From an archaeon (GTDB taxonomy: Archaea; Nanobdellota; Nanobdellia; Pacearchaeales; GW2011-AR1), in contig JABHLR010000004.1 in assembly GCA_018693315.1 (NCBI GenBank), positions 34,138 to 98,137 of the forward strand: DNA of 64,000 nucleotides, in the 5' to 3' direction. How positions within the stretch are numbered: position 1 is the stretch's first letter; every line of letters begins with the position of its first letter. Positions 17,140 through 48,615 of the stretch are shown one piece after another. The position numbers and the translations under genes were made by a program. The notes beneath the pieces were generated by a model. It did not search any database. It had not been told where the DNA came from and saw only the letters and a list, made by a program, of their open reading frames with translations.

Positions 17140-20100
17140 CTACTCTCTCTCATCATCAACAGGCTTACAAACCATAATATTCTTCGCAATAAACGCATCC
17201 CCAAATTCCTCATTCTTCTTAAATTTCCCACTAATCCTGATCCCATCCCCCTCCTTAACCGGCGCCTCTCTCAAGCACTCATTATAATCCCTCGGGAAAA
17301 CCGTCACCTTCAAATCTCCATCACGAGAACCAATATCCATAAACGCCATATCATCCCCATTCTTCGTCACAATATTACTAACTCTCTTAACCAAACCAAA
17401 AACCTCAGCCTCCATATCATCCTTCAAACTACTATAAGGTGTGAAATCCCCATTCTTAGATTCGGCAAAAGCATCAGTCGCATGCCCCGAAACGCAAACC
17501 CCCAAAAGCTCCTCTTCCAAACTCAACTTATCCTTCATCTTCATTGGCGGCAAATCCGGATACTCAACAACATCAGCAAATCCCTCCCCAAACAATGTCT
17601 TCTGCCTCTCCGTAGAATTAACCGAAGGCGTCACCCTATCATAAACCTCCAACAAACTCGCACGATTGATCCCAAGCTCATCAAAAGCCCCAACAGAAAT
17701 CAACGAATGACAAACTCTCTTATTCACCTTCGACAAATCAACCCTATTCACAAAATCCTGATATGAATTATACGGCCGTTTCTCCATAATCTTAACCATA
17801 GCCTCACCACCAACATTTTTTACTCCACTCAAACCAACCCTAATAACCTTCTCACCATCAACCTCAACAACACCGAAATCCTCTCCAGATGTATTAATAT
17901 CAGGATGTAAAATTTTAATCCCTTCCTGCCTTGCCGATTCCAAATAAAACGCCAACTTATCAGGATCCCTAGTCGCCGACGAAATAGTCGCAGCAAAAAA
18001 CTCAACAGGATAATATTTTTTCAAATAAGCCGTCCTATAACTAATCAAAGCATAGGCAGCCGCATGAGATTTATTAAAAGAATACTCAGCAAACTTCACA
18101 ATATCATCCCACAACTTATCAACCTTAACCGGATCCATCCCAGAATGCTCAACACAACCCTCCTTAAACTGAACCTCCATCTTATTCATCAAATCAATCT
18201 TCTTCTTACCAATCGCCTTCCTCAAAACATCAGAATCACCCCGTGTAAAACCAGCCAAAGCCCTAGCCAGCAACATAACCTGCTCCTGATAAACCATAAT
18301 TCCATAGGTCGGCGCCAAAATCTTCTTAACTTTTTCATGCGGATAACTAGCCTCATCCTTCCCATGCTTCCTATTCGCATAAACCTCCAAATACTGCATC
18401 GGCCCAGGACGATACAAAGCAACAATCGCAATAATATCATCAAAACAAGTCGGCTGCACATTCCGCAACGTCTTTCTCATCCCCTCACTCTCAACCTGAA
18501 AAACCCCAATACTCTTAGCCTCACGCAACATCTCATAAACGGCATCATCATCCATCGTAATATTTTCCAACCAATCACCATCTTTCCCGATCATATTCAA
18601 AACATTCTTAATCACATTCAAAGTCTCCACTCCCAAAAAATCAAACTTAACCAAACCATAAGTCTCAACATCACCACCCTCAACTTGCGTAATCACATCA
18701 CCCTTCTTCGCATAAGTCGGAATATATTCACTAATCCCCTCCCTTCCCCAAACAACCCCACAAGCATGAACACCCTTATGTCGAACACAACCCTCAAGTC
18801 TCTCCGCAACCTCAAAAATTTTCTCGTGCTTCCTCTTAAAGTTTTGAAGCTTGGCGGCATCATCTTTCAAGTCACCTTCTTTTATTGTTCCGTCTTCGTT
18901 CTCTATTCTTAATCTAGCATTCAAACTCTTTTGAATCGTCTTCTCCGTAACCAACTTCGTAATCGCATTCGCCTCATCAAACGGAATTCTAAAAACTCTC
19001 ATCACATCCTTCAAAACAGCCTTCGCTTTCATTGTCCCAAAAGTCCCGATCATCGCAACCTTATCCTCCCCATATTTCTTTCGAACATAATCTATAATCG
19101 CGCCCTTATCCCCAAAATCAATATCAAGATCGGGCAACGAAATTCTATCGGGATTCAAAAATCTCTCAAACAACAAATCCAAAGCCAACGGATCCAACTG
19201 GCTAATCCCTAAAGAATAAGCAACAATAGATCCAGCACCAGAACCACGAACAGCCCGCTCAACATTCAACCTCTTAGCCTCTTTCATAAAATCCCACACA
19301 ATCAAAAAATAAGTCTCAAAACCCATATTACCAATCACCTTCAATTCAAAATTCATCCGCTCAATCGCATCGTCATAACTACTCTTCCCTTTGTATCTCT
19401 CATCCAAACCGGCCTTACATAACTGATACAAATAATCCTTATGGCTCATATCATCTGGCGTATCAAAATGCGGGAAAATCGTCTCGCTCATATCTAACTC
19501 AACATTGCATCTCTCCGCAATCTCCGTCGACAAATCAACAAACTCGGGATTATCCGGAAAGGTATTTTTCATCTCCTCCTCGCTCTTAACCCAATATCCA
19601 CTCCCATCAAACTTAAACCGATTCTCGTTCGCCATATCTCCATTCGTTTGAATCGCCAACAAGACCTCATGTGAATAAGCATCCTCTTCCTTCAAAAAAT
19701 GAGAATCGCAAGTCGCCACAATTTTCAATCCCATCTCCGAACCAACCCTCTTATAAAAATCAATAACCTTCGCCTCCTCAGGAATCCCATGGTCCTGAAC
19801 CTCCAAATAATAATTCTCCTTCCCAAAAATATCAACATACTCCTCAATCAATTTCCTCGCCCTTTCCTCGTCATCATTAATCACAGCCTGCGCAACATCA
19901 TTCCCAATACAGGCACTCATACAAATCAATCCCTTCGAATATTTCCTCAAAGTCTCCTTATCCAAACGAGCTCTGTAGTAAAACCCCTCACCATTCGCAA
20001 TCGAAACCAACCTCACCAAGTTTTTATATCCCTCCAAATCCTTCGCCAACAAAATCAAATGATAATTCCGGTCATCCTTGTTCTTCTCTTTGATATCATT

Positions 20101-20310
20101 ACATATATAAGGTTCAAACCCAAAAATCAACTTAACCCCAGCTTTCTTCGCCAACTCATATTTCTTAATCACCGCGCCCATATTCCCATGATCCGTAATA
20201 GCAACAGCATCCTGACCCATCTCCTTCACCCTATCAAACAACTCCGAAATCTTAGTCGCACCATCCAACAAAGAATACTCCGAATGTAAATGCAAATGAA
20301 CAAATCCCAT
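17140..20310 (-). CDS. dnaE: DNA polymerase III alpha subunit (bacterial C-family replicase, DnaE-type)
   Basis: PHP motif HLHLHSEYSLLDG, palm motif SLPDLDIDF, GTFGTMKAKAVLKDV, and a C-terminal OB-like region (VFGLVKRVSNIVTKNGDDMAFMDIGSRDGDLKVTVFP). Start set to ATG 20310 (MGFVHLH), which is 22 nt after a phased TATA box. The track ORF starts at TTG 20325. Confidence 0.9.
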   Translation of the reverse strand: MGFVHLHLHSEYSLLDGATKISELFDRVKEMGQDAVAITDHGNMGAVIKKYELAKKAGVKLIFGFEPYICNDIKEKNKDDRNYHLILLAKDLEGYKNLVRLVSIANGEGFYYRARLDKETLRKYSKGLICMSACIGNDVAQAVINDDEERARKLIEEYVDIFGKENYYLEVQDHGIPEEAKVIDFYKRVGSEMGLKIVATCDSHFLKEEDAYSHEVLLAIQTNGDMANENRFKFDGSGYWVKSEEEMKNTFPDNPEFVDLSTEIAERCNVELDMSETIFPHFDTPDDMSHKDYLYQLCKAGLDERYKGKSSYDDAIERMNFELKVIGNMGFETYFLIVWDFMKEAKRLNVERAVRGSGAGSIVAYSLGISQLDPLALDLLFERFLNPDRISLPDLDIDFGDKGAIIDYVRKKYGEDKVAMIGTFGTMKAKAVLKDVMRVFRIPFDEANAITKLVTEKTIQKSLNARLRIENEDGTIKEGDLKDDAAKLQNFKRKHEKIFEVAERLEGCVRHKGVHACGVVWGREGISEYIPTYAKKGDVITQVEGGDVETYGLVKFDFLGVETLNVIKNVLNMIGKDGDWLENITMDDDAVYEMLREAKSIGVFQVESEGMRKTLRNVQPTCFDDIIAIVALYRPGPMQYLEVYANRKHGKDEASYPHEKVKKILAPTYGIMVYQEQVMLLARALAGFTRGDSDVLRKAIGKKKIDLMNKMEVQFKEGCVEHSGMDPVKVDKLWDDIVKFAEYSFNKSHAAAYALISYRTAYLKKYYPVEFFAATISSATRDPDKLAFYLESARQEGIKILHPDINTSGEDFGVVEVDGEKVIRVGLSGVKNVGGEAMVKIMEKRPYNSYQDFVNRVDLSKVNKRVCHSLISVGAFDELGINRASLLEVYDRVTPSVNSTERQKTLFGEGFADVVEYPDLPPMKMKDKLSLEEELLGVCVSGHATDAFAESKNGDFTPYSSLKDDMEAEVFGLVKRVSNIVTKNGDDMAFMDIGSRDGDLKVTVFPRDYNECLREAPVKEGDGIRISGKFKKNEEFGDAFIAKNIMVCKPVDDERE

Positions 20311-20329
20311 ACATAAAAAACTCAAAACC

Positions 20330-25849: not shown

Positions 25850-27076
25850 CTAAATCCCCAAACTATCAACCAAAATAGCCTCAACCTTATCAAACAAATT
25901 AGTAGGAACCGACAACCTAATCTCCCGAGTCCGACCATGCCGCCCCTTAGAAATCACCTTAGCATTTATCAAACCCAACATATCAATCTCAGCCAAAATA
26001 TCAGAAATCCTCCTCTGAGTTAAAGCATCCGTCTTCGTCCGATCACAAACATCCTGATAATAATTATAAACATCCCCTGTATAAAACCGCTCCTTACTAT
26101 CCTTAGCCGCCTTCGTCAATTCCATAATCGAATACAAAACCAACTTAAACTGCTTCGGCTCACCCTCAACAATATCCAAAATCTTATCCCGCTCCATCTT
26201 CAAATTCGCCAAATCAATATAATCCTCCCCAATCGCCTTCTCCCCATCCCTCTCCGACAGCTCCGCAGCAATCCTCAACAAATCCAAAGCCCTCCTCGCA
26301 TCCCCATGCTCCCGAGCCGCATAAGCCGCACACTTCGCAATCACCCCGTCAGCAACAACATCCTCCTTAAACGCCGCCTCACACCTCTCATTCAAAATAT
26401 CCTGCAACTGAATCGCATTATAAGGATGAAAAACAAACTCCTCCTCCCCAAGAGAACTCCGAACCCTCGGATCAATATTCTCCAAGAAAGTAACCTCATT
26501 AGAAATCCCAATCAACGAAATCTGCGCCTGACTCAACTCCTGATTCAACCGAGTAAACGAATATAAAAAGTTACTATCCATTTTCTTAATCATTTGATCA
26601 ACCTCATCAAAAACAAAAACAATCAACTGCTTCTTAGAATCAACCAACTCAATAAACTTCGCCCAAACCTGATCAGTCGGCAAACCCGTCGATGGAATCT
26701 CCCCACCAAGCTGCCGAATCAAAGCCGCCAAAACCCTATACTCCGTATCCGCAACCTTCTTCAACTTACAATTCAAATATTCAAACTTCACATCAACACC
26801 AAGTTCCTTAGATTTCTTCAAAATCTCATCACTAACATACTGCACCGACAAAGTCTTCCCAGTCCCAGTCTTCCCATAAACAAACAAATTACTCGGCCTC
26901 TCACCCCTCAAAGTCGATGCCAAAATCGAAGCAATCGACTTAATCTGCTCATCTCTATGAGGAATCGAATCCGGAGTATGCCGAACCTGCAAAACCCCTT
27001 TATTCTTAAAAAGACTATTATTCACCGCCGAATTAAAAATCTCGCCCAATTCAACTCCCATTTCCAATATCACCAA
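25850..27076 (-). CDS. cdc6: Orc1/Cdc6 replication initiator
   Basis: Walker A VYGKTGTGKT, Walker B VFVFDEVD, and a C-terminal winged helix. Start is uncertain: TTG 27076, GTG 27073 or ATG 27061. Confidence 0.9.
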   Translation of the reverse strand: MVILEMGVELGEIFNSAVNNSLFKNKGVLQVRHTPDSIPHRDEQIKSIASILASTLRGERPSNLFVYGKTGTGKTLSVQYVSDEILKKSKELGVDVKFEYLNCKLKKVADTEYRVLAALIRQLGGEIPSTGLPTDQVWAKFIELVDSKKQLIVFVFDEVDQMIKKMDSNFLYSFTRLNQELSQAQISLIGISNEVTFLENIDPRVRSSLGEEEFVFHPYNAIQLQDILNERCEAAFKEDVVADGVIAKCAAYAAREHGDARRALDLLRIAAELSERDGEKAIGEDYIDLANLKMERDKILDIVEGEPKQFKLVLYSIMELTKAAKDSKERFYTGDVYNYYQDVCDRTKTDALTQRRISDILAEIDMLGLINAKVISKGRHGRTREIRLSVPTNLFDKVEAILVDSLGI

Positions 27077-27902: not shown

Positions 27903-28307
27903 ATGACAAACCTAAAATTAGCAGGATCACGATTCACAAAAATCGACGCAGAAAGAAACGATGATTTTAGCGGCAAGCTAGAAATGACAACAAATATCAA
28001 AATAACTTCTATAGAAAAAATTAAAGAAACAAAAGATTCAATAAAATTAAAATATGTTTTCGCAGTAGACTACAAAGAATTAGGAAAAATCACAGTTGGC
28101 GGAATATTATTTCTATCAGGGGATTCAAAAACAATTAAAGAGATACTAAAATCACACAAAGATAAAAAATACGAAACCCCAGAATACATATCAATAACAA
28201 ACGTAATTATTCAAAAAGCATCAATCAAAGCTTTCGAAATCGAAGAGGAATTATCCCTTCCTATTCATATAAAGCTTCCAGCCCTCTCGATGAAAAAAGA
28301 TAACTAA
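27903..28307 (+). CDS. hypothetical protein
   Basis: 134 aa. CTTATAAA box 22 nt before the ATG. No motif recognised. Confidence 0.55.
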   Translation: MTNLKLAGSRFTKIDAERNDDFSGKLEMTTNIKITSIEKIKETKDSIKLKYVFAVDYKELGKITVGGILFLSGDSKTIKEILKSHKDKKYETPEYISITNVIIQKASIKAFEIEEELSLPIHIKLPALSMKKDN

Positions 28308-28335
28308 TTAAACGAAGTTCTTCATTAATTTTCAA

Positions 28336-28360
28336 GCCCATATCACATAACAGTATTGCC
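28336..28360 (+). pseudogene. decayed copy of the tRNA-Ser 5' acceptor/D-arm segment
   Basis: gcccatatcacataacagtattgcc versus tRNA gcctgtatcgcataacggtattgca: 20/25 identical. Differences are G>A (x3), T>C (x1) and one A/C at the 3' end. Confidence 0.5.
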
Positions 28361-28495
28361 GAACAATTCACTTCGAGCAAAACAAAAACATGCCTGTATC
28401 GCATAACGGTATTGCACGCGGCTCGAACCCGCGGCCCTTACGGGCGTCCCCGTTCGATTCGGGGTACAGGCGTTTTGTGAGATGTAAATTGTGAG
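28361..28495 (+). repeat. A-B hairpin element copy 1, with the intact tRNA-Ser in its loop
   Basis: A arm gaacaattcacttcgagcaaaac (28361..28384) and B arm ttttgtgagatgtaaattgtgag (28473..28495) bracket the tRNA. They are homologous to the contiguous copies at 28544, 48141 and 48495. Confidence 0.6.
28392..28472 (+). tRNA. tRNA-Ser (anticodon CGA)
   Basis: Hand fold: GCCTGTA/TACAGGC acceptor, 3-bp D stem, CGCGG-CTCGAAC-CCGCG anticodon arm, 14-nt variable arm (GCCC..GGGC), CCCCG-TTCGATT-CGGGG T arm, discriminator G. 81 nt, no encoded CCA. Confidence 0.85.
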
Positions 28496-28498
28496 TCA

Positions 28499-28538
28499 GG
28501 CTCGAACCCGCGGCCCTTACGGGCGTCCCCGTTCGATT
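28499..28538 (+). repeat. perfect 40-bp direct repeat of tRNA-Ser positions anticodon loop to T loop
   Basis: ggctcgaacccgcggcccttacgggcgtccccgttcgatt is identical to 28420..28459. The tRNA 3' end ggtacaggcg (28463..28472) recurs at 28602..28611. Confidence 0.9.
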
Positions 28539-28543
28539 TAAGC

Positions 28544-28597
28544 ATCTTCGCTTCGAGAAAAACAACTTTAAGATATTTTCGAGATGCAAAGTGCGAG
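28544..28597 (+). repeat. A-B hairpin element copy 2
   Basis: catcttcgcttcgagaaaaacaactttaagatattttcgagatgcaaagtgcgag lies between the 40-bp tRNA-Ser fragment and the 10-bp 3'-end fragment. Confidence 0.7.
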
Positions 28598-28614
28598 CAG
28601 AGGTACAGGCGTAA

Positions 28615-32282: not shown

Positions 32283-32337
32283 CTTATTAATTTTTAATCA
32301 ACTTTCTTTATAAATGTTTCGCGTTTTTGGACAGCCA

Positions 32338-32390
32338 ACACCCGTTTAAACAGCAAAACGCCAAAAAAACACCCGTTTAAACAGCAAAAC
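32338..32390. repeat. two 22-bp direct repeats ACACCCGTTTAAACAGCAAAAC upstream of the 31677..32282 gene
   Basis: Copies at 32338..32359 and 32369..32390, with a degenerate third near 32474. TGTCCAAA/TTGGACAG words recur nearby. Confidence 0.7.
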
Positions 32391-32603
32391 ACCACACCTG
32401 TCCAAAGCATAAACACTAACTTTTATCGTCGGTAAACAACAAAACAATTATAAAATTTTTAAACAAGCAACCCACACCCACTTAAACAGCTAAAAAACAC
32501 TGTTTTAGCACCAAACACGTCCAAATACTGTCCAAACAACACCCCTCAAACACCCCAAAATCCACGCCAAAAAGATTATAAACTTCGAATTCTATAAAGA
32601 AAC

Positions 32604-35088: not shown

Positions 35089-35913
35089 ATGCAAAAAGAG
35101 GACTTTTTGAAAAAACTTGAGACAGAATTAAAGATAGCTAAAAATTCAGAATACACAATCCGAAATTACATCAACGCAAACGAAAGATTAATTGACTTCA
35201 TAGAAAAATCACCGGATCAAATCACAACAGATGACACAAAACTCTTCATCGCAGAAAATCTAACAGACAAAGCCGCAACATCAATCATACTTTTCCTAGC
35301 CGCAATCAAATACGCAAGCATCACAATTTTCAACACAGACATCACCGCCCCAATCAAACGACCAAAAAAAGAAAAACGACTTCCAATAACTCTTTCAAAA
35401 GACGAAATCAAAAAATTACTCGCAGAACTCAAAACTGAAAAGTCAAAACTCATGATAAGCCTAATGTACGCCTGCGGATTCCGAGTTTCAGAATTAGCAA
35501 ACCTAAAAATCCAAGACCTAAACTTCCCAGAAAAGATCGGACACATCAGGCAAGCCAAAGGGAACAAAGATAGGCTGTTTAATATTCCCGAGTTTCTCGT
35601 CGACGAATTACAAGATCTGGTTGTTCTACAAAAAAATCACCAACAAGAATTTTTATTTTCAGGAAGAAGCGGAAAAATCTCAACAAGGAACCTACAAAAA
35701 ATTGTTTCATCAGCCGCAAAACGCGCAGGATTAGATGGCGTCCACTGCCACCCCCTCCGCCACTCTTTCGCAACCCATCTTTTAGAAAATAATATAGACA
35801 TCAGAAAAATCCAAGAACTTTTAGGCCACGCCGATCTCTCGACAACCCAAATCTACACTCACGTCTCAACTGAAGAACTCAAAAAAATCAAATCCCCCCT
35901 AGATAATTTATAA
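35089..35913 (+). CDS. xerA: tyrosine recombinase, XerA/XerC/D-like
   Basis: 274 aa. C-terminal HPLRHSFATHLLENNIDIRKIQELLGHADLSTTQIYTHV (R..HxxR..Y catalytic pattern). Confidence 0.8.
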   Translation: MQKEDFLKKLETELKIAKNSEYTIRNYINANERLIDFIEKSPDQITTDDTKLFIAENLTDKAATSIILFLAAIKYASITIFNTDITAPIKRPKKEKRLPITLSKDEIKKLLAELKTEKSKLMISLMYACGFRVSELANLKIQDLNFPEKIGHIRQAKGNKDRLFNIPEFLVDELQDLVVLQKNHQQEFLFSGRSGKISTRNLQKIVSSAAKRAGLDGVHCHPLRHSFATHLLENNIDIRKIQELLGHADLSTTQIYTHVSTEELKKIKSPLDNL

Positions 35914-48112: not shown

Positions 48113-48140
48113 TCCAGATTTGAACTAAGACTGTCGCAAG

Positions 48141-48200
48141 CGAACAACTCGCTTCGAGCAAAACAAAGTTCTTAATTTTTTGCGAGATGCAATTTGTGAG
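48141..48200 (+). repeat. A-B hairpin element copy 3
   Basis: cgaacaactcgcttcgagcaaaacaaagttcttaattttttgcgagatgcaatttgtgag. Inner stem GCAAAA/TTTTGC, outer stem CTCGC/GTGAG. Confidence 0.7.
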
Positions 48201-48202
48201 TA

Positions 48203-48220
48203 AAATCTTGCCGAGAGCGT
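48203..48220 (+). repeat. 18-bp direct repeat of the tRNA-Arg 3' end
   Basis: aaatcttgccgagagcgt is identical to 48096..48113. gtcgcaag (T-stem 5' strand) is also repeated at 48133..48140. Confidence 0.85.
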
Positions 48221-48417: not shown

Positions 48418-48494
48418 TGTATGGTTTCAAAGAAACCATTCAATAAGTAGAATTCTAAGGCTGGAGAGAAGCCAAGAAATTGAATAGTCGGGGA

Positions 48495-48556
48495 CGAACA
48501 ATTCGCTTCGAGTAAAACTAATATCGAAGATATTTTTACGAGATGCAAATTGCGAG
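48495..48556 (+). repeat. A-B hairpin element copy 4
   Basis: cgaacaattcgcttcgagtaaaactaatatcgaagatatttttacgagatgcaaattgcgag. Inner stem GTAAAA/TTTTAC, outer stem TTCGC/GCGAG. Followed by ggaatctccttccc, a near-repeat of the tRNA-Leu 3' end. Confidence 0.7.
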
Positions 48557-48615
48557 GGAATCTCCTTCCCCCCAAGCCCCACAAACTTTAAAACACACAA
48601 TTCTCTAAATATAAC

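Follow-up and report, generated by a model that had tools for sequence, protein, structure and literature searches.

Within the 64 kb of contig from a small-celled archaeon that was analysed (the window), an intact tRNA-Ser(CGA) gene lies between the two arms of a hairpin, which itself interrupts an older, decaying tRNA-Ser of which pieces are left on either side. This hairpin, together with a second one in the T loop of the same outer copy, is a member of a conserved family of ~60-nt sequences ('A-B elements') that is represented by four copies in the window and by at least 36 distinct copies overall, and related genomes carry the locus in a graded series of states. On balance we think it probable that a non-autonomous hairpin element hits tRNA genes at the DNA level, and that this is followed by recombination between the repeated tRNA segments.

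Anatomy of the tRNA-Ser locus

The pieces of the locus (Table 1) span 277 nt and have one putative promoter. A preliminary description of the sequence had recognized all of these pieces and placed them correctly, and the intact tRNA-Ser(CGA) is confirmed by ARAGORN (call at 28391-28473). At related loci, boxes of the TTTAAAA or TTATAAA type are found at around -33 to -24 of the tRNA genes. The intact tRNA-Ser has no TATA-like box 33-24 nt upstream, where the sequence reads ccgaacaatt (28359-28368), and the putative TATA box ahead of the outer 5' fragment would probably be the promoter of the old gene, today driving the entire locus.

Table 1. Features of the tRNA-Ser locus and the other family members in the window. 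The three complete hairpin copies, for which covariance model scores are given, were part of the training alignment of that model.
Feature	Position	Strand	Basis
Putative archaeal TATA box, ctaattaaac	28304..28313	+	found by eye; at -32 to -23 of the outer 5' fragment
Outer 5' fragment: positions 1-25 of an older tRNA-Ser, acceptor GCCCATA, decaying	28336..28360	+	20/25 against the intact gene
A arm of hairpin 1, cgaacaattcacttcgagcaaaac, and short linker	28361..28391	+	homologous to the family's A arms; the MFE fold pairs it with 28473-28498
Intact tRNA-Ser(CGA), acceptor GCCTGTA/TACAGGC, at the hairpin-loop position	28392..28472	+	ARAGORN; cloverleaf fold
B arm of hairpin 1, ttttgtgagatgtaaattgtgag	28473..28498	+	pairs with the A arm in the MFE fold
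Outer middle fragment: positions 30-58, anticodon loop to T loop	28499..28538	+	40/40 against the intact gene (28420-28459)
Hairpin 2: complete A-loop-B, left-arm variant GCATCTTCGCTTCGAG, in the T loop of the outer gene	28539..28600	+	covariance model, 62.5 bits, E = 6e-14
Outer 3' fragment: T-stem end and 3' acceptor strand	28601..28612	+	repeats the 3' end of the intact gene
Family member downstream of tRNA-Arg(CCT)	48116..48220	+	hairpin 48140-48203, 75 bits
Family member downstream of tRNA-Leu(CAA)	48494..48574	+	hairpin 48494-48559, 76.4 bits

The match between the outer 5' fragment and the live gene is as given in the preliminary description; the chance of such a match is ~1e-7 per offset by a binomial estimate, and four of the five differences are transitions. 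Two G-to-A changes within the fragment hurt the D stem and the G18/G19 pair. The intact gene, which is the only intact tRNA-Ser copy at the locus now, has a perfect cloverleaf with a long variable arm as its MFE fold, and locus L012 and the simple gene of L073 share its exact sequence; it is missing from the output of the Rfam pipeline. When both arms are included in the MFE fold, A and B pair in the usual register of the family with the cloverleaf in the loop. The last three nucleotides of the B-arm segment (tca), where L071 has ggcgg, probably represent what decay has left of outer-gene positions 27-29.

The perfect 40-nt copy and the complete A-B element that follows it were likewise borne out, the latter by its fit to the family covariance model. 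The copy of the 3' acceptor end is present, but its length is 11-12 nt (ggtacaggcgt, ~28602-28612, equal to 28463-28473) and not the 10 nt that had been reported. In the window this outer 3' fragment has the TACAGGC of the intact gene, whereas that of L012 reads TATGGGA and pairs with the outer 5' GCCCATA. The A- and B-arm motifs are commoner in the window than in any of 100 shuffles, and considering the fact that L012, an independent metagenome contig, shows the same architecture, the arrangement is not an assembly artefact.

The hairpin family and its link to tRNA genes

Members of the family were found in assemblies of Woesearchaeota, Pacearchaeota and Nanoarchaeota, and all 20 matches to a stricter pattern among 185,579 species genomes belonged to these three groups or to an unclassified archaeal MAG. 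In an alignment of 29 copies, eight pairs change on both sides and 92% of the cells are paired; none of 500 shuffles reached these values and slid controls were far lower. A tandem G.A (CGAG opposite CGAG) is conserved and has Watson-Crick pairs on either side, and at the position following the inner tandem G.A all four Watson-Crick pairs are seen. As to the strand, G-U pairing speaks for the tRNA sense, but the C.A mismatches that are conserved would turn into G-U pairs on the opposite strand, and energy-based folding has a slight preference for the minus strand. A kink-turn (L7Ae-binding) reading of the tandem G.A was rejected by inspection, given that the 3-nt bulge is lacking, and C/D-box, terminator and promoter readings of the loop were rejected as well, as the T run varies and some copies have CCGTT instead.

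The structured element is widespread in Woesearchaeota and Pacearchaeota and is described neither by Rfam, where the hairpins had no match at the gathering thresholds or at E up to 10, nor in the literature that our searches recovered. The full hairpin pattern gave no match in the 2.9 million viral contigs of IMG/VR; 21 viral matches to a 16-mer of the A arm were judged to be chance, being unrelated, mostly GC-rich phage sequences without a nearby B arm. A covariance model search of the window returned no additional copies, and a marginal match at 32310-32367 is a different repeat.

Nearly all copies lie within a decayed tRNA copy that adjoins an intact gene for the same tRNA, and at least 12 isoacceptor types carry the hairpin. 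The usual order is intact tRNA, spacer and 5'-truncated copy with the hairpin; on the A-arm side, at most 152 nt away, 27 of the 36 distinct copies have an intact tRNA in the same sense, and their right flank matches the 3' end of that tRNA. The polarity is fixed, with the intact gene on the A-arm side and the B arm abutting the displaced target. Among the tRNA-linked copies 27 of 29 are in sense, the antisense ones being located in the tRNA-Cys pseudo-copies of L054 and L056. At the junctions, 3-4 nt of the tRNA are replaced without target-site duplication, and the junction position varies (26/27, 37-41, 53-57, 58-63 and 65/66). Successive units are stacked downstream of the intact gene in L001, L002, L010, L021, L055 and L057, and one copy follows tRNA-Ala in a 16S-23S spacer, which is presumably transcribed together with the rRNA. 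There are also copies away from tRNA genes, such as that of L064, which follows a protein gene.

The window has two other members. Downstream of tRNA-Arg(CCT), a reverse-complement copy of the T loop (48116-48126) comes first; a decayed copy follows that begins with the anticodon loop and extends as far as the T-stem 5' strand, the hairpin takes the place of T-loop nucleotides 54-56, and a copy of the final 17 nt of the tRNA closes the unit. Downstream of tRNA-Leu(CAA), a decayed tRNA-Leu copy has the hairpin in its T loop, and a diverged copy of the tRNA 3' end comes next. The tRNA-Gly gene of the window has no hairpin. A 'tcgaac' in unit 2 of L002, L010 and L076 was initially taken for a Ser(CGA) anticodon loop that had moved between loci, a reading that was dropped because the reverse-complement T-loop motif proved general. 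None of the fragments carries CCA and an origin as retro-copies was therefore rejected. A scan of genomes for more nested copies (gap of 70-100 nt) gave one spurious bacterial match, the pattern being too strict for diverged arms.

States of the locus in related genomes

The comparison with related genomes that the preliminary description had proposed as a check was made on ten syntenic tRNA-Ser loci and supports the structural reading. L070, L074, L077 and L080 have a single uninterrupted tRNA-Ser(CGA) with the acceptor GCCCATA/TATGGGC, which is the outer type as opposed to the inner GCCTGTA/TACAGGC; their 5' acceptor strand is identical to that of the outer 5' fragment in the window, and the outer 3' piece of L012 fits the same acceptor. 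The earlier suggestion that the outer pieces derive from one tRNA-Ser is upheld by these genes and by L012 and L071, in which the outer 5' and 3' ends are mutually complementary and differ from the intact gene. Going by these sequences, the two outer ends belong to one gene.

The two insertions that had been proposed, near 26/27 and in the T loop, can be told apart in the relatives. L071 has the first only: a 5' piece, the A arm, the intact tRNA, the B arm and an uninterrupted copy of positions 27-76, the 3' end of which pairs with the outer 5' piece, so that the insertion between 26 and 27 is clean and nothing is missing. Both insertions are present in the window and in L012, which matches the window architecture exactly, and in all three it is the first hairpin whose arms enclose the intact gene. 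At L075 the 5' side has collapsed into a hybrid gene; L073 is fully collapsed with an acceptor of the intact-gene type; L076 has the hairpin 2 unit alone; and L078 and L079 retain a decayed 5' piece with the A arm, or just an A-arm remnant. The variant of hairpin 2 is found at the same place in L012, L075, L076 and L010 and is absent from L071, L073 and L074. In a tree of the neighbouring gene the states are scattered among lineages, which fits a single origin with several collapses and repeated insertions alike.

Comparison of the window, L012 and L071 revealed three double substitutions that preserve the pairing of the arms around the intact tRNA, and hence the A-B stem is under selection. 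The middle fragment in L012 and L071 matches the intact gene of its own genome, including the lineage-specific variable arm. This tracking points to gene conversion, which on the same ground would most likely account for the perfect 40-nt copy in the window. In L012 a T8 run directly follows the tRNA and may stop transcription ahead of the B arm.

Origin of the nested arrangement

According to the reading that we favour, the resident tRNA-Ser(CGA) would have been broken by two members of the hairpin family. Hairpin 1 would have come to lie between positions 26 and 27, holding a complete tRNA-Ser gene between its arms, and hairpin 2, with its short loop, would later have entered the T loop of the outer copy, which was dead by then. 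Transcripts from the old promoter would carry the intact tRNA behind a leader made up of the outer 5' piece plus the A arm, and ahead of a trailer formed by the B arm, with the two arms forming the stem that is preserved by selection. Homologous recombination and gene conversion between the tRNA repeats would reshape the locus, conversion preventing the 40-nt middle copy from diverging from the intact gene and recombination collapsing the structure into hybrid or simple genes in the relatives. Insertion at the DNA level is indicated by the hairpins that are antisense to tRNA-Cys. Simple insertion fails to explain the usual arrangement, which needs an extra duplication or a collapse from the nested state; the evidence for either is confined to the tRNA-Ser locus.

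The hairpin is inferred to be a non-autonomous mobile element or a derivative of one. MITEs, REP elements, IS200/IS605-derived palindromes and Rickettsia palindromic elements are small palindromic non-autonomous repeats that would resemble the present family in being non-coding, around 60 nt long, present in many copies per genome and able to insert into genes, and in forming imperfect hairpins with conserved mismatches. As in MITEs, there are many dispersed similar copies of which the presence varies among close relatives; the arms are imperfect inverted repeats, but, unlike in MITEs, target nucleotides are replaced instead of duplicated. The family also differs from palindromic repeats in lacking terminal inverted repeats bounded by target-site duplications, in its tie to tRNA genes, in its fixed polarity and in having one member with a tRNA gene inside. 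A transposase or integrase was not linked to any hairpin copy, and no kilobase-size insert or free element was found among the copies or in IMG/VR. The sole tyrosine recombinase in the window (35089-35913) is 6.5 kb away and looks like a housekeeping Xer-type enzyme. An analogy, and no more than that, may be drawn with integron attC sites and the single-stranded att site of CTX phage, in which an imperfect hairpin with conserved unpaired features abuts a displaced target half and units accumulate at a fixed entry; here there are no integron integrase and no cassette genes, and involvement of Xer would be hypothetical.

More tentatively, the hairpin-flanked tRNA-Ser could be a self-rescuing mobile cassette that destroys the essential single-copy resident tRNA gene and supplies the replacement between its arms, so that the host would be unable to lose it. 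The short-loop hairpins would then be non-autonomous derivatives that survive only in already redundant tRNA copies.

It seems unlikely that the units are scars of integrase-mediated integration. The att site of a plasmid or virus would have been a hairpin-interrupted tRNA-like segment; a crossover in the 3' (or 5') part of the tRNA would have rebuilt an intact tRNA, displaced a partial copy and left a hairpin-bearing att remnant, and the element bodies would later have been deleted. The order of the parts is indeed that of a Campbell-type integration with the crossover 3' of the hairpin, and the right flank of the hairpin equals the 3' terminus of the adjoining intact tRNA in nearly all tRNA-linked copies. 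The partial copies have their start within or close to the anticodon loop, and the junctions are confined to that loop, the T loop and the 3' strand of the acceptor, which Williams reportedly described in 2002 as the classical crossover sublocations. The stacking of successive units downstream of the intact gene also agrees with integration, a partial gene beside a complete one is a recognized integration signature (PMC9897764; PMC3293823), and an att-site model with an intron-like insert that leaves a 5' tRNA fragment has been published (PMC3293823). On the other hand, the interval between tRNA and hairpin does not exceed ~150 nt (at ~29 placeable loci), and the 3-150 nt between the repeats contain no ORF, integrase or element body. 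The absence of the hairpin from the viral contigs, the tRNA nested between pieces that are displaced on both sides, which does not result from a single Campbell integration, and the occurrence of one hairpin at at least 12 isoacceptor types, where integrases are usually specific for one, also argue against it.

SSV1-type and pNOB8-type integration into archaeal tRNA genes, in which the tRNA is rebuilt by the integrase reaction, likewise leaves an intact tRNA adjoining a direct repeat of its own part, with similar junctions and stacking, but the present loci have no integrase or cargo and only a short distance between the repeats, carry a conserved hairpin inside the tRNA-derived repeat, share one hairpin across isoacceptors and, for tRNA-Ser, have fragments on both sides of the inner gene. 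For the tRNA-Thr of Caldiarchaeum subterraneum, part of the resident gene was proposed to be replaced by a mobile element bearing a stretch of tRNA with an extra insert (Sugahara et al. 2012, PMC3293823). There too, a 5' fragment is left upstream and population variants retain intermediate states, but the insert is a spliced BHB intron in a working gene and a 1.8-kb recombinase-encoding sequence separates fragment and gene (PMC3293823), whereas here the hairpin resides in a dead copy, a recombinase is lacking and the replacement gene is inside the hairpin.

The hairpin might instead be a cis-acting element that the host uses in tRNA expression, such as a processing stem for leader and trailer, a signal for 3'-end formation or termination, or a site to which a protein binds; recombination or slipped replication at such a structured site would then have produced the surrounding tRNA fragments as by-products. 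Between genomes in which the neighbouring protein is only 53-58% identical, the arms show about the same conservation as the tRNAs. At the vertically inherited tRNA-Ser locus, the stem that encloses the intact gene is maintained through double substitutions, nearly every copy has the orientation of its tRNA and one follows tRNA-Ala in the rRNA spacer; moreover, the conserved tandem G.A, U.U and C.A features suggest an RNA that binds protein. We nevertheless regard this as improbable, given that the close relatives L070, L073, L074, L077 and L080 have no hairpin at the same tRNA-Ser gene, that the tRNA-Gly of the window has none, that the hairpin is nearly always in the dead copy and not directly beside the intact gene, that it is antisense at the tRNA-Cys loci, and that transcription in L012 may end at the T8 run before the B arm is reached. 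Within the favoured reading, a service to the host could explain equally well why the hairpin was kept at vertically inherited loci.

The preliminary description was reminded of intron-containing and split tRNA genes, a likeness that found no support. It is very doubtful that the outer pieces are a working split or multi-intron tRNA-Ser from which the archaeal splicing endonuclease excises the hairpins, the locus then yielding two tRNAs. As with archaeal BHB introns and split or permuted genes, there are short structured inserts, mostly in sense, at 26/27, in the 37/38 region and in the T loop, positions that are known as noncanonical intron and split sites of archaeal tRNAs. The outer ends of L012 and L071 are still complementary and distinct from the intact gene, but this complementarity is explained by inheritance from the uninterrupted gene type (L070, L074). 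The arms can be drawn in a BHB-like register as well, but this register has no covariation of its own, its outer helix is paired in only 53% of the cells and the double changes fall in the extended-helix register instead. A conserved bulge-helix-bulge (BHB) motif, in which a 4-bp helix separates two 3-nt bulges at the exon-intron boundaries, was not found at the hairpins, strict scans giving only matches with 2-bp flanks (~14 per 236 nt), which is the rate in shuffled sequence. Furthermore, the outer gene is disabled: its 5' piece in the window has lost one D-stem pair and G18/G19, in L012 the middle piece has C56 changed to T and pair 1-72 is G.A, and the 5' strand of the anticodon stem has decayed in both. 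More generally, interrupted copies are 5'-truncated or have disabling changes and almost every one adjoins an intact uninterrupted copy, and the copies that host the hairpin are pseudogenes, whereas BHB introns interrupt the functional copy and do so in sense; antisense hairpins occur at tRNA-Cys, and some copies, as that of L064, are not in tRNA genes at all. Split tRNAs come from separate loci with their own promoters and with leader and trailer sequences that are complementary, whereas all pieces are found here within the 277 nt. Splicing of the outer pieces at the RNA level finds no support, as far as sequence can tell.

A plain tandem duplication of tRNA-Ser with random deletions and incidental A and B sequences would explain the direct repeats of tRNA segments but can practically be dismissed, considering that A and B belong to a strongly covarying family, that the 5' piece, intact gene and 3' pieces are nested and not tandem, that the insertion in L071 is clean and that none of the ten relatives shows such a pattern, which the preliminary description had named as contrary to its reading.

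The origin of interrupted, split and permuted archaeal tRNA genes is an old open question, for which disruption of the genes by tRNA-targeting mobile elements is the leading explanation, supported by very few natural intermediates. The locus described here is a natural record of tRNA gene breakage and replacement, as within one clade it offers a graded series of uninterrupted genes, genes broken by a replacement-carrying hairpin, a dead copy that was hit once more, a hybrid and fully collapsed forms. On the practical side, such arrays yield tRNA fragments that automated tools can misreport. Mobility of the hairpin, if proven, would make it a tRNA-gene parasite of a new kind, living in genomes whose tRNA genes are all single-copy and essential, and the enzyme that moves it would be worth finding. 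If the hairpin-flanked tRNA-Ser is a self-rescuing cassette, insertion and collapse would be a general route of tRNA allele replacement in reduced genomes, from which tRNA genes with introns or in split form could naturally arise.

The tRNA-Ser locus and the hairpin family

The preliminary description placed an intact tRNA-Ser(CGA) between the A and B arms of an element that interrupts a second, decayed tRNA-Ser, and this nesting holds for the pieces named when examined by ARAGORN, folding and repeat comparison. ARAGORN calls the intact gene at 28391-28473, which folds into a perfect long-arm cloverleaf. The reported 40-nt copy is exact (28499-28538 equals 28420-28459, no differences), and the outer 5' piece (28336-28360) indeed shares 20 of 25 nt with the gene start, four of the five differences being transitions. 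The 3' copy is likewise present, but spans 11-12 nt at about 28602-28612 rather than the 10 bp given. The Rfam tRNA model reported neither the window gene (28392-28472) nor the uninterrupted gene of the syntenic locus L070, even when 451 nt were searched with E-values up to 10 allowed; the closely similar gene of L071 receives 48.8 bits. The window gene is backed by ARAGORN, the cloverleaf fold and conservation, and pipelines based on the Rfam model may miss tRNA-Ser(CGA) in these genomes.

The A-B element is an imperfect hairpin of about 60 nt, whose A and B motif counts in the window exceed those of every shuffle. An alignment of 29 copies from the window and related loci yielded a helix of 23 positions in which a C.A mismatch is conserved, along with one U.U mismatch and two tandem G.A steps (CGAG facing CGAG); the invariant core columns were partly set by the search patterns, so that evidential weight lies only in the flanking columns. 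Eight pairs changed on both sides, and all four Watson-Crick combinations occur at the pair following the inner G.A step. Overall 92% of the cells pair, observed values that none of 500 shuffles reached, and the covariation signal was lost when partner columns were slid. The covariance model that recovers the three complete window copies was trained on an alignment including all three. An Rfam search gave no family resembling the hairpin, and we found no published description of it in the literature.

Location of features in the window and in related loci (L numbers, other archaeal assemblies)
Feature	Locus	Position	Remark
Complete hairpin copy	window	28539-28600	covariance model
Complete hairpin copy	window	48140-48203	covariance model
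Complete hairpin copy	window	48494-48559	covariance model
Split family copy, the window's fourth	window	around tRNA-Ser	arms flank the intact gene
TATA-like box	window	28304-28313	upstream of outer 5' piece; clearer in L010, L070
Reverse-complement spacer	window	48116-48126	
DnaE (DNA polymerase III alpha subunit)	window	17140-20325, minus strand	full-length, bacterial-type; PHP, NTPase, finger, HhH domains; adjoins archaeal polymerase D genes
Orc1/Cdc6	window	25850-27076	
cacccgtttaaacagcaaaac direct repeats	window	32339-32391, 32470-32500	looser third copy; intergenic, between two helix-turn-helix protein genes
Tyrosine recombinase	window	35089-35913	274 aa; N-terminal SAM-like domain
Uninterrupted tRNA-Ser	L070	1941-2024	
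LAGLIDADG-like ORF	L028	3608-4276, minus strand	free-standing; motifs GWHIGDGS, IFDTDGG
Antisense hairpin	L054	1383-1445	in dead tRNA-Cys copy
Two hairpin copies	L066	6210-6400	16S-23S rRNA spacer, downstream of tRNA-Ala
Other short elements (core cttacttcgttcgct)	L058	7420-7490	between intact tRNA and duplicated tRNA fragment
Other short elements (core cttacttcgttcgct)	L062	2270-2405	between intact tRNA and duplicated tRNA fragment

States and history of the tRNA-Ser locus

Ten syntenic relatives were fetched via the 134-aa gene just upstream and via DNA patterns.

States of the tRNA-Ser locus in related assemblies
Locus	State	Remark
L070, L074, L077, L080	single uninterrupted tRNA-Ser(CGA)	acceptor GCCCATA/TATGGGC
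L073	single uninterrupted gene identical to window intact gene (GCCTGTA/TACAGGC)	starts where window outer 5' piece starts
L071	5' piece (positions 1-26), A arm, intact gene, B arm, uninterrupted copy of 27-76	no second hairpin; 3' end of copy pairs with outer 5' piece
L012	as window	outer 3' TATGGGA pairs with outer 5' GCCCATA, unlike intact gene
L075	hybrid gene, B arm, middle copy, second hairpin, outer 3' piece	no A arm
L076	simple outer-type gene, then second hairpin unit	
L078	badly decayed 5' piece, A arm, intact gene	nothing downstream
L079	badly decayed 5' piece, A-arm remnant only, intact gene	nothing downstream
L010	decayed A arm	extra hairpin unit

Given these states, the outer pieces, earlier read as one broken tRNA-Ser, are the remains of the resident gene type that is still intact in L070 and L074. 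The relatives also place the first insertion, which holds the intact gene and had been put near position 26/27, between 26 and 27, and they identify the hairpin in the T loop as a separate, later hit in the dead copy. The hybrid gene of L075 combines an outer-type 5' end (GCCCATA strand) with an intact-type 3' end (TACAGGC strand), the product expected if the 5' piece recombined with the intact gene. It lies about 59-139 nt past the 134-aa gene (ena:ERZ27316312 k141_82477), carries two acceptor-stem mismatches and is apparently the sole copy; it is either a transient population recombinant or an assembly chimera.

Between the window and L012/L071, three helix positions differ on both sides with pairing kept (C-G/A-T, A-T/G-C and C-G/T-A), and the remaining arm decays where its partner was lost (L010, L075, L079). 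Selection therefore acts on the A-B stem around the tRNA-Ser, whether as RNA or as DNA. The middle fragment of each of three loci (window, L012, L071) agrees with the intact gene of its own genome, including lineage-specific differences in the variable arm, while the neighbouring arms and outer ends have diverged. The 40-nt copy is most simply explained by gene conversion, with the intact gene 79 nt away as donor. The outer 3' piece of the window, which also carries the TACAGGC of the intact gene, was probably converted as well.

On the tree of the neighbouring protein, lineages with simple and with complex states are intermixed, and three pairs of sisters, about 90% identical, differ in state. 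A single old insertion that later collapsed several times fits this distribution, and L075 beside L074 resembles such a collapse path; repeated insertion of the cassette fits too. The window clade and the distant L071 agree in having an intact-type acceptor stem and in the sub-variant of their arms, which fits either a common cassette or strong constraint.

In these genomes a TATA-like box lies about 33-24 nt upstream of the mature tRNA 5' end. Such a box precedes the outer 5' piece and none was found upstream of the intact tRNA-Ser. Transcription of the intact tRNA therefore probably starts at the old promoter, and its leader would comprise the 5' piece and the A arm. In L012 the tRNA is directly followed by a T8 run, at which transcripts may stop short of the B arm.

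Hairpin units at other tRNA genes and their genomic setting

The tRNA-Arg and tRNA-Leu genes of the window are each followed by a short spacer, a decayed mid-tRNA copy, a hairpin replacing T-loop nucleotides 54-56, and a copy of the tRNA 3' end. Other genomes have the same layout at Ile, Trp, Thr, Val, Gln, Pro, Lys, Asn, Ala, Leu, Arg and Ser genes. Around three quarters of the distinct copies (27/36) have a same-sense intact tRNA at most 152 nt away on the A-arm side, and the sequence past their B arm matches the 3' end of that tRNA; a few copies (L028b, L063, L064) lack a detectable adjoining tRNA. Junctions differ by tRNA family (53/57, 58/63, 65/66, and the anticodon loop in tRNA-Arg(TCG)). 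At the tRNA-Cys loci L054 and L056 the hairpin is antisense and occupies the anticodon loop of a dead but full-length copy; the live gene follows downstream, still on the A-arm side. The dead copy retains its own TATA box and the live gene has a separate promoter. Arrays of two or three units occur in L001, L002, L010, L021, L055 and L057, and the L066 hairpins are presumably transcribed within the rRNA precursor.

In 11 of the 28 units, a significant reverse-complement match of 7-11 nt to the preceding intact tRNA occurs in the spacer; exact matches of this kind lie in the window, L018, L065, L067, L007, L010, L002, L024 and L068. Ten of the 11 cover the T loop and T stem, against a chance expectation of about one; in the tRNA-Arg(TCG) units the inversion derives from the anticodon loop, the site of their hairpin. 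With the following sense copy it forms a second, tRNA-derived palindrome beside the A arm. These matches may be a trace left by the mechanism.

Several kinds of small insertion seem to strike tRNA genes in these genomes, including the cttacttcgttcgct families. In L062 the live tRNA-Thr(CGT) gene is preceded, at about 110 nt, by a 5' fragment (positions 1-21) that has a TATA box of its own. The L028 ORF probably encodes a homing endonuclease; tRNA-Ile and its hairpin unit follow directly downstream of it.

The window belongs to a DPANN archaeon (Woesearchaeota/Nanoarchaeota group). Its genes include those for Orc1/Cdc6, the two DNA polymerase D subunits, the bacterial-type DnaE, 5S rRNA and four tRNAs, and all close DNA and protein relatives found were from Woesearchaeota, Pacearchaeota or Nanoarchaeota assemblies. 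C strongly exceeds G on the plus strand, with an extreme GC skew of -0.3 to -0.58 (positions 1-50000) whose sign is unchanged at Orc1/Cdc6 and the intergenic region upstream of it. Decay of the outer tRNA-Ser pieces (G to A and T to C on the plus strand) has the same bias. The cacccgtttaaacagcaaaac repeats may be protein-binding sites. The tyrosine recombinase, Xer-like by size and domain content, is the sole recombinase candidate seen in the window, with no link to the hairpins observed.

Mechanism and relation to known systems

The hairpin inserts into copies of tRNA genes, its presence varies among close relatives, and the repeats recombine. We found no recombinase linked to any hairpin copy, saw no element body at the hairpin loci, and did not find the hairpin in viral contigs. 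Our preferred reading is that the hairpin would be a non-autonomous DNA element, surviving only where an intact tRNA copy remains; at the Ser locus the surviving copy would be the one between its own arms. The main rival, Campbell-type integration by elements with a hairpin-bearing attachment site whose bodies were since deleted, explains the common layout well, but leaves both the nesting and the complete lack of element bodies unexplained.

The likeness to intron-containing or split tRNA genes, suggested earlier, finds no support. The outer half of the hairpin can be drawn in a bulge-helix-bulge register, but this shows no covariation of its own, the outer helix being paired in only half of the copies, and strict scans matched at the rate of shuffled sequence. 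The outer pieces have disabling changes, a single plain gene suffices in relatives, and the hairpin can be antisense to the tRNA. An origin of the fragments as copies of mature tRNA is ruled out, as none contains CCA.

Among published cases the Caldiarchaeum tRNA-Thr model comes closest: there, part of the resident gene is replaced by a mobile element bearing an interrupted piece of tRNA, and a fragment stays behind (PMC3293823). The wider rule that a complete and a partial tRNA gene remain after integration (PMC9897764) applies here too. New are the existence of the conserved hairpin family, its confinement to tRNA-gene copies of many isoacceptors without a linked recombinase, the family member with a complete tRNA gene between its arms, and the population series of intermediate states at the Ser locus.
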